DNA from: Candidatus Hodarchaeota archaeon
Lineage (GTDB): Archaea; Asgardarchaeota; Lokiarchaeia; Sigyniarchaeales; SOKP01
Assembly: GCA_048887225.1 (NCBI GenBank)
Contig: JBHLJY010000037.1
Coordinates: forward strand, 1-16,273
DNA: 16,273 nucleotides
Direction of reading: 5' to 3'
The notes under the pieces were generated by a model that saw only the letters and a list, made by a program, of their open reading frames with translations, was not told where the DNA came from and did not search any database. Positions within the stretch are counted from its first letter, which is position 1. Each line of letters starts with the position of its first letter. Shown here in pieces: positions 10,331-14,692 of the stretch. Position numbers and translations under genes: made by a program.

Positions 10331-12034
10331 ATGAGAAAAGATTTAAAAAATCTAATTGATTCAGTTGAAGATCAAGAAACAGAAAAGTCCGACTATGAAC
10401 AAATAATAGAAAATTTAAAAGAAAAAATAAATAAACTAAATTTTTCTTTAAATGAGCAAAAATTACTAATTAAAGAGCAAGAAAAAAAACTGAATAAAAG
10501 AGAAGATTTAGATATCCCTGAAGAGTTCCAGATTTTAAAAGATATGGTTATATCACAGAGACAAGACTTGAAAAAGAAAGATAAAGATATTGAGATTTTA
10601 GAAGAAAGAATCGATGAATTATTGGCTCAATTAGATAACAGCGCTAAGTCTGGAGATGAAATGACTAATAATCAAGAATTAATTAAAGCCAAAAAATTAG
10701 TTGTGCAATTAACTGAAGAAAATGAGACTTATAAACAGAATGAAAATAATACTAAAGAACTTATTGAAAATTTAAAAAAAGAAAACGAAACATATCGTTT
10801 AGAGAATGAAACCCTTAAAAATCAGCTTCAAATTTTTGAATCTGAAGCCTTTGAAAAAAGCTTAGGAGAAATTAATTCAGAAGAAATAGAGAGTGAATCT
10901 CTTAGTGCAGAAAATTTAAAATTAGAAGTTAAAGATTTGAAAAGTAAGATTATTCATTTAAAACAAAAACTAGAAACAACGAAATCTCCTTCTGAAGAAG
11001 ATATAATACTTCCTGACCAACCTGATGGAATTATTGAGAATCTATTAACTCTTGAGAAAGAAAATAATAAGCTAAAGAAAGATCTTGATACAGCAAATAT
11101 TACAATTGATAATTTAGTTGAAGAAATAAATGGTAAAATGAAAGAGATTTCTAATCAAGAAAAGGAAATTAGAGAGAAAAATATTAAAATAAGTGCGTTA
11201 ACCGAAAAATTTGACAGTACAAAGCGCCGAAATATAGAGCTACAAAAAGAATTAGAAGAATTTTCAGAAGATTCGGGGCTGTCTAAAGATAAACTCGAAT
11301 ATTATGAATTTGAACTTCAAGAATCTGAAAAAACAATAAATCAATTGAAAAATGAAAATATTCGCTTAAATAATTTGGTTTCAGAATTAAATGATAGCAA
11401 ATTATTTCCTGATAAAAAATTGGAAACACAAACACCTTATGATAAAGAGTTAGAGGAAATGATTGATTATTTGGAAAAAGAAAATCACCAATTAAAAAAA
11501 TCAATCATAGAATTGAGGGAGAAAGAATCCAGTTCATCTGTCAAATTAGAAACAAGTGAATCTTCTTATAAAGATATTCTAGACACAAATAAAAATCTGA
11601 GAGCGGAGAATGAACGGTTAAACAATTTGATTTTAGATTTAAAAAAAATCAAGACTATTACATCTGATGATAATATATCAGTTGCTCCTAAACTCTATCA
11701 AAATTTACTTTTTATGAGATTGTTTAATAACTTAGATAAATATAGAAGGGAATTATTAATTGATTCACTAATCCAGGATCTCGTTAATTCAAAGAGTTTA
11801 GATATTAAAAGATACATCATAGACATAGTAAGCGAAATTAAGGGCGAGGTAAGAATCCGTGATACTTTAATAGATATGATTAATAACGAGGATTGGTTAA
11901 TTAGGTTGTATTTAGTTAAAGCGCTCAGTAAATTTGATACTGAAGATACAAAAGATGCTTTAGAAGAACTCCTTAATGATACTGATATAGACGTAAGAGA
12001 GGCAGCAAAAAAAGCGTTAAAAAGAATTTCATAA
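10331..12034 (+). CDS. Long coiled-coil protein with C-terminal HEAT repeats
   Basis: About 440 aa of E/K/N/L-rich heptad sequence, then LIQDL..DIKRYIIDIVSEI, LIDMINNEDWLIRLYLVKALSKF and LEELLNDTDIDVREAAKKAL (HEAT/PBS-lyase type). Confidence 0.85.
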   Translation: MRKDLKNLIDSVEDQETEKSDYEQIIENLKEKINKLNFSLNEQKLLIKEQEKKLNKREDLDIPEEFQILKDMVISQRQDLKKKDKDIEILEERIDELLAQLDNSAKSGDEMTNNQELIKAKKLVVQLTEENETYKQNENNTKELIENLKKENETYRLENETLKNQLQIFESEAFEKSLGEINSEEIESESLSAENLKLEVKDLKSKIIHLKQKLETTKSPSEEDIILPDQPDGIIENLLTLEKENNKLKKDLDTANITIDNLVEEINGKMKEISNQEKEIREKNIKISALTEKFDSTKRRNIELQKELEEFSEDSGLSKDKLEYYEFELQESEKTINQLKNENIRLNNLVSELNDSKLFPDKKLETQTPYDKELEEMIDYLEKENHQLKKSIIELREKESSSSVKLETSESSYKDILDTNKNLRAENERLNNLILDLKKIKTITSDDNISVAPKLYQNLLFMRLFNNLDKYRRELLIDSLIQDLVNSKSLDIKRYIIDIVSEIKGEVRIRDTLIDMINNEDWLIRLYLVKALSKFDTEDTKDALEELLNDTDIDVREAAKKALKRIS

Positions 12035-12068: not shown

Positions 12069-12326
12069 ATGAGAAAATATGCCCTTGACAGATGGAACTT
12101 TTCAGATAAAACTGGCAAATGGGTATATGTCACTAAAGATAAAAATGGTATACGGAAATATATTTATCAACTTAAGCCACCTCAAGAATTTATAGAGCTT
12201 AGTTTTAAAATAAATGAAATTAATGAAAAAATACTCGCTACAGAGGACCAAAAAGAAATTAAAAGACTCTACATGGAAATGATGAAAATTTCGAAAAAAA
12301 TGCAAGCAATGAGAAGAAATAAATAA
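12069..12326 (+). CDS. Small hypothetical protein (aromatic beta-meander plus helical hairpin)
   Basis: 85-aa ORF with ATG start 34 nt after the coiled-coil gene on the same strand, followed by a T-rich tract. Confidence 0.72.
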   Translation: MRKYALDRWNFSDKTGKWVYVTKDKNGIRKYIYQLKPPQEFIELSFKINEINEKILATEDQKEIKRLYMEMMKISKKMQAMRRNK

Positions 12327-12359
12327 TAATTAGTTTTTCTTTTATTCTCTATTAAAAAA

Positions 12360-12668
12360 TTATTTATGAGAATAACTTTTTTTAAAAGACGATTCAATTG
12401 TTTCTTGTATTAAATCGTCAATTTCCTTTAGACCGAAAAATTTTTCGTAAGAATCTTTAACATGTACGATTCCTTGTTCTAAAAAATCGCATTCTGGATT
12501 TGAACAAAAATTTACCGCCTTATGAGTGATACCAATTTTTTTTACACCCTTGAATTTATTTTCATCAATTTTTAATCTTTTTAAATATAGTTTAGCCTTA
12601 CATAGAGGACATTTCTGATTTGATTTTATTGCATTACAATCTTTAAATGCTTCTTGTAATGTACTCAT
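12360..12668 (-). CDS. Small zinc-ribbon protein
   Basis: 102-aa ORF with CPLC...FCSNPEC four-Cys zinc-ribbon pattern. Confidence 0.75.
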   Translation of the reverse strand: MSTLQEAFKDCNAIKSNQKCPLCKAKLYLKRLKIDENKFKGVKKIGITHKAVNFCSNPECDFLEQGIVHVKDSYEKFFGLKEIDDLIQETIESSFKKSYSHK

Positions 12669-12808
12669 ATGGCGTTTTTTTTGTATTGTAATTCGGTTTA
12701 AACTTTTTAATAGTTAAAAATTCTCTCCTAACACAAGTTAAAAAAAGCTATTATTACGTGGATATTATTGATATTTTAGAAAAAAAATCAAATATACGCT
12801 AAATTATC

Positions 12809-13528
12809 CTAAGATCGAATAAAAGAATTTAATTTTTGCTTTAAAATCCTCATCATTTTTAAGTTTAATTTAAGGAATACGTCCATAGCAGACTTAAGGG
12901 ATATGTTATTTCCAACGGAAATATAAAAGTATCTTTTAGAACCGATTTTAGGAATAGCATAACCAAGTATGCGATCTTGATAATAAATCTCTGAAAATTT
13001 TATGTTTTTTTTGGTTTCTTTAAGTTCTCCGAAGAGTAACTTTTTGGTATAACCAATAACAGGAATATTGATTTTTAATCCAAAATCACAAGCACAACCG
13101 TACAAAAATGGATGGATTTGCCCGCTAGAGTTAACAATATAACAATCTGGTACGATTTTTGAATCACAAATCAAATCCATATAAACATCTGTTTGATTTA
13201 AAAATAATATAGACGATAAATATTTTGTAAATATTGGTTTAAATGATTTAAAACTTATATTGACAATCTCATTATCGGAAATATTATAGATTAATAAACC
13301 AGAATATGCCAAACCTTCTAAAAATCTAATTTTAATCAATCCTATTAGATTATATTCTGTGTTTTTATCTATTAAAGATACTTTTTTCGCATTTTCTTTC
13401 TGGAATTCGCGAACTTCCTCTAATGTCGAGAATGGAGTATTTATCAGATATGGTTGAACACATTCAGGACATACATAATAATATTCAATAGAGTGGACTT
13501 TACATCTATCAGTTTTAATAAAAAACAA
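12809..13528 (-). CDS. Endonuclease V homolog, predicted catalytically inactive, with N-terminal CxxH-x7-CxxC motif
   Basis: EEVREFQ, PDCYIVNSSGQIHPFLYGCACDFG, IPVIGYTKKLLFG and YISVGNNISL match EndoV motifs. The catalytic Asp/Glu/Asp align to K66/Q112/N133. The start is TTG. Confidence 0.85.
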   Translation of the reverse strand: MFFIKTDRCKVHSIEYYYVCPECVQPYLINTPFSTLEEVREFQKENAKKVSLIDKNTEYNLIGLIKIRFLEGLAYSGLLIYNISDNEIVNISFKSFKPIFTKYLSSILFLNQTDVYMDLICDSKIVPDCYIVNSSGQIHPFLYGCACDFGLKINIPVIGYTKKLLFGELKETKKNIKFSEIYYQDRILGYAIPKIGSKRYFYISVGNNISLKSAMDVFLKLNLKMMRILKQKLNSFIRS

Positions 13529-13651
13529 CCTTGCTTATTTATGTATCATATTAACAAGAATTAATGGGTTATAAATTATTAGTAAAATTTCTTATAAAAG
13601 TTAATTAAATGTAAAGATTTAATTTATCTTAAAAAATATATCACAAAGATT

Positions 13652-14455
13652 ATGAAAATCGCAGTTTCTGGCAAAGGAGGAGTAGGTAAAACTTTAATAG
13701 CGGGGACATTAGCAAGAATGTTTGCTAAAGATGGTTTTAGAGTTTTAGCTATTGATAATGATTCTGCTATGAATTTAAGTTATACTTTAGGAATAAATAA
13801 TGAAGTAAAATCGAAAATAGTTCCCATCTCAGAAATGAAAAAGCTGATTGAAGAGCGTACGACAATTGAAGGTGGTGGTCCAGGCGTATATAACATTAAT
13901 CCAGAAGTTTCTGACATCCCTGATAGATTCAAGGTTCTTGGCCCAGATGGATTGCAATTGCTCGTGCTAGGTAGTATCGAAGAACCCGCAACCGGATGTC
14001 TCTGTCCTGAAAACGCTTTAATTAGAACTTTATTATATAATTTATTCGTTAAAAGAGATGAAATCGTAATTGTTGATTTTGAAGCAGGCTTAGAACATTT
14101 AGGAAGAGGCACGGCTAAGGGTATTGATGTGATGTTAGTTGTAACTGAACCCTCTCAAAAATCGTTAGATTTATGCTCCAAAATTATAGAATTATCCAAA
14201 AAATTAGGAATTATTAATATTTATTTAATTGCAAATAAAATAATAGACAACTCACAGATAGATGCGATCATTCAAAGAATTAAAGATTGGGAAGTACCCC
14301 TTTATCACACAATGCCCTTTGATTACGAGATTGGAAAGGCTGATTTAAGCGGCATTTCTCCCTTAGATTTTAACCCAAATTCAAATGGAGTAAAAGCAAT
14401 TGAGAATTTATATTTAAAATTAAAACAATTAAAAATAGAACTATTTGATTTATAA
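13652..14455 (+). CDS. cooC: CO dehydrogenase/acetyl-CoA synthase nickel-insertion ATPase (CooC/AcsF)
   Basis: MKIAVSGKGGVGKT deviant Walker A, GCLCPEN Ni-binding CxC and DFEAGLEHLGRGTAKGID motifs. Confidence 0.93.
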   Translation: MKIAVSGKGGVGKTLIAGTLARMFAKDGFRVLAIDNDSAMNLSYTLGINNEVKSKIVPISEMKKLIEERTTIEGGGPGVYNINPEVSDIPDRFKVLGPDGLQLLVLGSIEEPATGCLCPENALIRTLLYNLFVKRDEIVIVDFEAGLEHLGRGTAKGIDVMLVVTEPSQKSLDLCSKIIELSKKLGIINIYLIANKIIDNSQIDAIIQRIKDWEVPLYHTMPFDYEIGKADLSGISPLDFNPNSNGVKAIENLYLKLKQLKIELFDL

Positions 14456-14692
14456 CATATTAGCGAGATCCATATCTTGGTCTTCTGCTATTTCCCGCCA
14501 TTGCTCTATTGCTTCCATAGCTTCCTTTTCGTTTATCTGTTCAATCGCATAGCCTGCATGAACTATTACATATCTGCCTATCTCTGGATTTTGAATTAAT
14601 GCAATGATTACGTTCTGTTTTATCCCATCGAAATCCACTAATGCAGAATTGCCACTAATTTCTAAAATTTTTCCTGGAATTGCAAGACACAT
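14450..14692 (-). CDS. hypC: [NiFe]-hydrogenase maturation chaperone HypC/HupF
   Basis: MCLAIPGKI N-terminus with Cys2, VDFDG and YVIVHAGYAI motifs. Confidence 0.95.
   Translation of the reverse strand: MCLAIPGKILEISGNSALVDFDGIKQNVIIALIQNPEIGRYVIVHAGYAIEQINEKEAMEAIEQWREIAEDQDMDLANML

Follow-up and report, generated by a model that had tools for sequence, protein, structure and literature searches.

The window analysed here (the whole stretch of 16,273 nucleotides) carries on its minus strand the gene of a protein derived from endonuclease V (EndoV). This gene is part of a variable cassette between conserved flanking genes. The following features were assigned (window numbering, strand in brackets); residue numbers of the former metal ligands refer to the enzyme from Thermotoga maritima (Tm EndoV).

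10331–12034 (+): protein of 567 residues with a long coiled coil rich in Glu and Lys, and with HEAT repeats at the C-terminus
12069–12326 (+): protein of 85 residues, conserved flank identified by synteny
12338–13605 (no strand): variable cassette; in a blastn comparison with locus L086 the DNA homology to genome G138 ends at 13606 and resumes at 12337
12360–12668 (−): Cys-rich ORF of 102 residues (CxxC...CxxC), in the cassette downstream of the EndoV-like gene
12809–13528 (−): ORF encoding the EndoV-derived protein; 239 codons including the stop when read from TTG; 236 residues from the likely start ATT at 13519–13517
12812–13441 (−): EndoV (RNase H-like) domain, residues 30–239, from VIA-align, Foldseek and Pfam PF04493
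13130–13132 (−): codon AAC (13132–13130) of N133, the site of metal ligand D110, from the phmmer alignment
13193–13195 (−): codon CAA (13195–13193) of Q112, the site of E89, from the phmmer alignment
13331–13333 (−): codon AAA (13333–13331) of K66, the site of metal ligand D43, from the phmmer alignment
13460–13504 (−): putative zinc knuckle C9-x2-H12-x7-C20-x2-C23, predicted to form a beta hairpin and the start of a helix; absent from canonical EndoV
13652–14455 (+): P-loop ATPase of the CooC/MinD type, conserved flank identified by synteny
14450–14692 (−): HypC, beyond the ATPase gene, flank identified by synteny

The ORF at 12809–13528 (−) is open throughout from the TTG, with no stop codon. 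Translation probably starts at the ATT (13519–13517) rather than at the TTG at 13528. At six orthologous loci (among L073–L079) the codons of the zinc knuckle are kept in frame, yet there is no ATG, GTG or TTG upstream of the knuckle. Common to these loci is an ATT or, alternatively, an ATA that lies a few codons ahead of the first Cys and is preceded by a purine-rich motif resembling AAGGTTG or GATGAT. The TTG of the window falls within the purine-rich motif in front of the ATT, and an indel has removed the in-frame TTG from the closest relative, which is 84% identical. Because the orthologs share the ATT/ATA, lack an alternative upstream start, and the relative has lost the TTG, we infer a start at ATT. 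Miscalling of this non-canonical start would also explain why many database entries have a length of 190–222 residues and lack the knuckle.

The protein matches Pfam PF04493 (Endonuclease_5) with residues 47–222 and a score of 79.1 bits, compared to a curated cut-off of 23.4; this is the sole Pfam family reported at E-values up to 1. The scores for the NCBIfam equivalogs NF041102 and NF008629 (71 vs 300 and 62.9 vs 230) are far below the respective cut-offs. In a phmmer comparison with the PDB, residues 37–223 align with residues 14–201 of Tm EndoV. The best matches are the engineered crystallisation mutants D110N and E89Q of EndoV, which the natural sequence thus resembles. An AF2 model computed from 57 relatives has a pLDDT of 92.6 and a pTM of 0.90. 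Foldseek aligns this model to solved EndoV structures with TM values of 0.74–0.82, and VIA-align superposes model residues 30–239 on residues 8–223 of the Tm EndoV chain with a Z-score of 26.9 and an rmsd of 2.6 Å over 208 residues. By homology, with a profile score above the curated cut-off, and by fold, the protein is therefore a member of the EndoV family. By the defining catalytic feature, it is no endonuclease V enzyme. Proteins of this kind, for which loss of nuclease activity is predicted, are referred to as the dead type below.

As an enzyme, EndoV (deoxyinosine 3'-endonuclease) cleaves the second phosphodiester 3' of inosine. In Tm EndoV, Mg2+ is bound by D43, E89 and D110, and the phosphate is locked by K139 and H214 (PMC4650699). 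A column-by-column phmmer alignment places K66, Q112 and N133 at the positions of the three acidic ligands. The catalytic set of an EndoV enzyme (D43, E89, D110 and H214, or Asp in its place) is present neither in this protein nor in the clade of the dead type. The C-terminal R-x-PEP-x-R-x-A-H motif is missing as sequence, a deletion that includes H214 and R205 of motif VII. The C-terminal helix is nevertheless still predicted by the model, which aligns structurally up to Tm residue 223. The equivalent of R118 is lost, too.

The replaced positions differ in their conservation. N133 is invariant in 86 of 86 relatives. Position 66 contains Lys in 53 of them, Asn in 11, and Tyr, Asp or Met in one each. 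Position 112 contains Gln (70), His (8), Tyr (2), Arg (2), or Leu, Trp or Asn (one each), and an acidic residue in none. These counts show that the pattern did not arise by chance. Ranked by conservation, positions 66 and 112 are only 89th and 97th among 235 columns. Conserved acidic residues that lie near the old site in sequence are position 114 (Asp or Glu in 88%) and D148 (100%). D128 is conserved in the catalytic EndoVs as well and is therefore no new ligand. A subclade from genus g4 has the combination K/D/N, i.e. an Asp at the position of E89, and still contains a RIPEP motif.

An earlier note, written from the letters of the window alone, had proposed the three ligand replacements and the retention of Y103, H139 and K162; alignment and codons agree with it in every detail. 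The absence of the RxPEPxRxAH214 segment, which it had also noticed, holds at the level of sequence, the helix being still modelled. The EndoV fold, whose motifs it had described as kept, is borne out by the Pfam alignment and by the superposition on Tm EndoV. As for the conservation of K/Q/N in Asgard orthologs, which it had proposed as a check, N133 is invariant; positions 66 and 112 drift among mostly non-acidic residues.

Compared to the metal site, the residues for nucleic acid recognition are well preserved. According to the phmmer alignment, Y80, H116 and K139 of Tm EndoV correspond to Y103, H139 and K162. In the clade, these three residues are invariant or nearly so, as are Q43 (=Q20), L108 (=L85), G136 (=G113), G144 (=G121), G159 (=G136) and L165 (=L142). 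The roles of the corresponding Tm EndoV residues in lesion recognition have been described (PMC3025561, PMC4650699); for example, the hypoxanthine pocket consists of G83, L85, G111, G113, G121 and L142 (PMC4650699). The strand-separating wedge Tyr is Y103, found in 84 of 84 relatives. It is embedded in K-Y-L-S in the window and mostly in x-Y-F-P in the clade, compared to P-Y-I-P in EndoV. The pocket residues L108, G136, G144 and L165 are near-invariant, and the same holds for H139, which together with K162 (80 of 86) represents the contacts to phosphate and lesion. Ser residues (S106 and S134) occupy the two remaining Gly positions of the pocket, where catalytic Asgard EndoVs contain Thr/Ser and Ala/Ser. 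The protein is basic, with a median pI of 9.3 in the dead type, similar to that of the catalytic counterpart. The invariance of the recognition residues, combined with the drift of positions 66 and 112, argues that recognition is under selection and that catalysis has been given up.

The N-terminus contributes the most conserved novelty. All four ligands of the CHCC motif are invariant in every relative that includes the N-terminal region (30–31 of 30–31). In the AF2 model, this region consists of strands at residues 6–8 and 15–17 and a helix at residues 21–28, with a pLDDT of about 90; residues 1–29 lie outside the structural alignment to any solved EndoV. Ligand spacing, hairpin and helix start correspond to a zinc knuckle or treble-clef-like module, for which metal binding is predicted. 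The knuckle directly precedes helix 1, which bears the equivalent of the DNA-contacting Q20.

A search of 5.8 billion proteins yielded 86 relatives with 45–83% identity, and every one that has a source name is labelled as originating from Asgard archaea. An exhaustive profile search of 1.84 billion representatives clustered at 50% identity assigned no more than three full-length clusters and three fragments to the dead type, after which the score drops from 237 bits (146 for a fragment) to 113 before the ordinary EndoVs begin. The dead type is thus a small family of its own. The dead type is monophyletic (SH-aLRT 98) in an unrooted tree of 63 Asgard EndoV-fold proteins. It stands outside the catalytic clade of the family (support 100), and both groups are located on long stems. 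Across 21 genomes from six genera, the gene contains neither stops nor frameshifts. Its dN/dS is 0.28–0.32 in four close pairs (about 0.29), compared to 0.09–0.18 for neighbouring housekeeping genes and approximately 0.17–0.21 for the catalytic EndoV of the family, the latter determined at larger distances; note that dS is saturated for distant pairs. These genomic comparisons support a selected loss of the canonical metal site and not decay. The g4 subclade, with its K/D/N combination, has the RIPEP motif in common with the ordinary archaeal DEDH type, which suggests that the dead type may descend from the native archaeal EndoV.

Among 400 sampled genomes of the phylum, the dead type is limited to the family of the window, where it occurs in 21 of 135 genomes from six genera. 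The distribution of the two types was determined by a PF04493 search of all 135 family genomes. The 21 genomes contain only the low-scoring type (57–115 bits). Ninety genomes contain only a high-scoring type, which reaches at least about 124 bits (mostly 160–200) and keeps D/E/D, and the remaining 24 have no EndoV-fold gene of either type. The two types occur together in none of the 135 genomes, although genus g1 and genus g2 each include both. All counts refer to species representatives, many of them incomplete MAGs, and related genomes are non-independent samples. The genome of the window, which is 98% complete, contains no second PF04493 gene.

A D/E/D EndoV was found in the same slot between the same flanks in at least four genomes from three genera (G138, G258, G334 and G262). 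The corresponding gene of G138, which belongs to the same genus as the window, is located as follows:

L086:5878–6624: catalytic EndoV of G138, with counterparts at L087–L092

The flanking proteins of the window and of G138 are 85–88% identical, compared to about 25% for the EndoV-fold proteins. The cassette comprises 1.27 kb in the window vs 0.98 kb in G138. Because the two types never share a genome and occupy the same slot between the same genes, they are, as judged from these genome comparisons, alternative cassettes for one and the same locus of this Asgard family. The g4 copy of the dead type resides in a different, unrelated genomic context.

No conserved partner gene was found at the locus; the flanks are metabolic and housekeeping genes that are common to the loci of the catalytic type. 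Likewise, PADLOC, PHROGs and Rfam gave no link to defence systems, viruses or RNA families. The Cys-rich ORF of 102 residues, which shows a weak, sub-threshold match to Zn_ribbon_Top1 and has a dN/dS of 0.31, was considered as a general partner. It was ruled out by its presence at only two of 20 compared loci, namely those of the window and of its closest relative G247. The coiled-coil/HEAT protein is conserved in position and fast-evolving in sequence; its identity is 28–41% in most other genomes of the family, compared to 70–88% for its neighbours. In G138, approximately 1 kb of extra DNA (L086:3752–4761) lies between the genes of HypC and the CooC-like protein, which is absent from the window (14451–14488).

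The dead type was compared with known systems. With Tm EndoV (PDB 2W35/2W36 and 6OZF/6OZG) it shares the fold, the wedge Tyr, the Leu and Gly residues of the base pocket, and the equivalents of H116, K139 and Q20. It differs by K/Q/N, by the loss of H214, R118 and R205, and by the extra N-terminal CHCC knuckle. The catalytic EndoV of the family (for example that of G138, L086) has the chromosomal slot, the fold family and a similar pI in common with the dead type. In contrast, it is only about 24–30% identical, forms a separate clade, keeps D/E/D and has no zinc knuckle. As a further characteristic, the fourth ligand of this catalytic EndoV is an Asp ('PEPLYLAD') and not a His; it also contains 'GY' in place of 'GH' and has acquired or kept two insertions. 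In the PDB it matches best the EndoVs from B. subtilis and Streptomyces, which likewise have a fourth Asp, followed closely by mouse EndoV. Possibly, this catalytic EndoV is a xenolog by which the native archaeal type was displaced.

A further reference is DUF99/Endo_dU (PF01949; A. fulgidus 2QH9), which occurs in Asgard archaea and has an RNase H fold resembling that of EndoV; its DEDD tetrad is incomplete, too. Two residues that matter for activity, the first Asp and the C-terminal His, are retained in Endo_dU (PMC11585767) and are both missing from the dead type. Cleavage at dU was demonstrated for Endo_dU (PMC11585767), whereas for the dead EndoV a loss of cleavage is predicted. Its identification as a DUF99 protein was rejected; there is no PF01949 match at E-values up to 1, the structural Z-score is only 12.7, and the genome encodes a separate Endo_dU at another site. 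The latter is found at G000:C2:45896–46429 (−), locus L099, and scores 158 bits against PF01949.

The inactive PIWI domains of short Argonautes have lost their catalytic tetrad and serve to bind nucleic acid. Short prokaryotic Argonaute PIWI domains (SPARTA/SPARDA) and the A. fulgidus PIWI protein have a related RNase H-like fold (Z 9–10); the comparison is a functional analogy only. They belong to another family, and the dead EndoV has no guide-binding MID domain and no effector gene at its locus. As an analogy of function, the inactive PIWI domain is nevertheless the nearest one to the dead EndoV.

On balance, the protein is most likely a non-cleaving binder of deaminated bases or of structured nucleic acid. 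The EndoV-derived protein has kept the fold and the lesion-recognition apparatus, i.e. the Tyr wedge, the base pocket, and the equivalents of H116 and K139. All four residues of its metal-dependent active site have been lost by the exchanges D43K, E89Q and D110N and by deletion of the H214 motif, and a putative zinc knuckle has been added. A flipped-out deaminated base such as inosine, or a distorted nucleic acid, would then be bound and not cut. The Lys at the position of D43 would repel a metal ion; together with the Asn, it may contact the phosphate once held via Mg2+. Located in front of the DNA-contacting helix 1, the zinc knuckle may extend the binding surface. Homology, fold, residue exchanges, conservation across the clade, purifying selection, the common locus and the mutual exclusion are shown by the comparisons above, from which the loss of cleavage, the retention of binding and the nature of the ligand are deduced. 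A more specific version is put forward tentatively: the protein could be a 'bind, do not cut' EndoV that reads inosine or other deaminated bases, in DNA or in RNA, without the need for a metal ion. With a cutting EndoV as the alternative cassette, such sites would be cleaved in some strains and only bound and protected in related ones.

It is rather unlikely, but worth considering, that the protein is still a nuclease, which would use a non-canonical chemistry and fulfil the function of the replaced EndoV in repair or RNA processing. Since Endo_dU, with its EndoV-like fold, cuts at dU despite an incomplete tetrad (PMC11585767), missing ligands alone are no proof of inactivity. Furthermore, only D43 mutants of Tm EndoV are fully dead; mutants of E89, D110 and H214 still cut with Mn (PMC3025561). 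A site could have been rebuilt from N133, D148, D/E114, H139 and K66/K162, or Lys and His could catalyze a metal-independent reaction. Both N133 and D148 are invariant or almost invariant, 88% of the sequences have an acidic residue at position 114, and a metal could still be bound by N133. D/E/N variants of otherwise canonical EndoVs are common; they make up 19 of the 149 cluster representatives nearest to the dead type (P0092–P0235). That dead and catalytic EndoVs exclude each other at one locus is what is expected of functional equivalents, and the g4 subclade has retained an Asp at the E89 position as well as the RIPEP motif. However, it is the key residue D43, whose mutation to Ala, Cys or His abolishes inosine cleavage of Tm EndoV even with Mn (PMC3025561), that has been replaced by a cation. 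This position is itself variable (Lys 53, Asn 11) and thus no new catalytic residue; position 112 varies, too (Q/H/Y/R/L/W). The deletion of H214 and R205, and the fact that D128 is shared with the catalytic EndoVs, likewise argue against a nuclease.

We regard it as improbable that the fold was kept and that the role moved away from lesion recognition, towards a protein-binding scaffold or a zinc-knuckle regulator. Such a change would agree with the conservation of the knuckle, with the loss of R118 and of the C-terminal DNA-contact motif (R205..H214), and with neighbouring genes that give no repair context. A pure scaffold would however have no need for the near-invariant wedge Tyr, the Leu and Gly residues of the pocket, and the equivalents of H116, K139 and Q20, and the protein is still strongly basic.

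A decaying or relaxed copy, i.e. a lineage-specific degeneration, or a silent partner of an active EndoV paralog is most improbable and is refuted as far as sequence data allow: the dN/dS of about 0.29 exceeds that of the neighbouring housekeeping genes but is well below 1, the apparently truncated database entries are gene-calling artefacts of the non-canonical start, the intact genes form a monophyletic clade with invariant motifs, and a paralog is absent from the genome of the window and from every other carrier. The earlier note had regarded the ORF as intact and the loss of catalysis as selected, and both views are upheld, the former for 239 codons and now for all 21 genomes, the latter by the monophyly, the dN/dS values and the invariant binding residues. 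In contrast, its suggestion of an inactive partner of an active paralog fails, as 0 of 21 carriers have a catalytic EndoV. Close orthologs with D/E/D, which it would have read as a sign of lineage-specific decay, exist only in part: counterparts at the same locus (G138 and others) do keep D/E/D, but they constitute a diverged lineage of about 25% identity and are no close orthologs.

To our knowledge, EndoV has been treated as a uniformly catalytic and universally conserved enzyme, whose role in vivo is still debated. Neither an EndoV lineage that is naturally devoid of catalysis nor Asgard variants of EndoV came up in full-text searches of the literature. The genomic evidence presented here establishes a real, selected and narrowly distributed pseudo-nuclease, the loss of nuclease activity being predicted, which combines a novel zinc module with an unusual either/or relation to its catalytic counterpart. 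If it binds inosine without cutting, it would represent a new class of proteins that read modifications or lesions of nucleic acids, found in those archaea that are closest to eukaryotes. In that case, the dead EndoV could also serve as a practical reagent; at present, inosine is captured by means of wild-type EndoV blocked with Ca2+, which permits binding without cleavage (PMC4650699). The either/or cassette constitutes a clean natural experiment on the purpose of EndoV.

A second, independent-looking group of degenerate EndoVs was observed in genus g35 of family f22 (L043–L045, L093–L095, L098). These proteins contain Thr, Ser or Ala at the position of D43, Asn at E89 and Glu at D110; in some of them K139 is replaced by Gln, and the knuckle is missing. 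Other genomes of genus g35 have a D/E/D EndoV, with one type per genome in the sample; no common flanks were found that would indicate a shared locus of the degenerate and the catalytic EndoVs of f22. Finally, the first Asp is absent from about 20 of the 149 nearest representatives, which contain for example ARE, ANE, SEN, KEN, YEN, GEN, QED or NGN at the ligand positions. This suggests that dead EndoVs could be a more general phenomenon, so far left unstudied.
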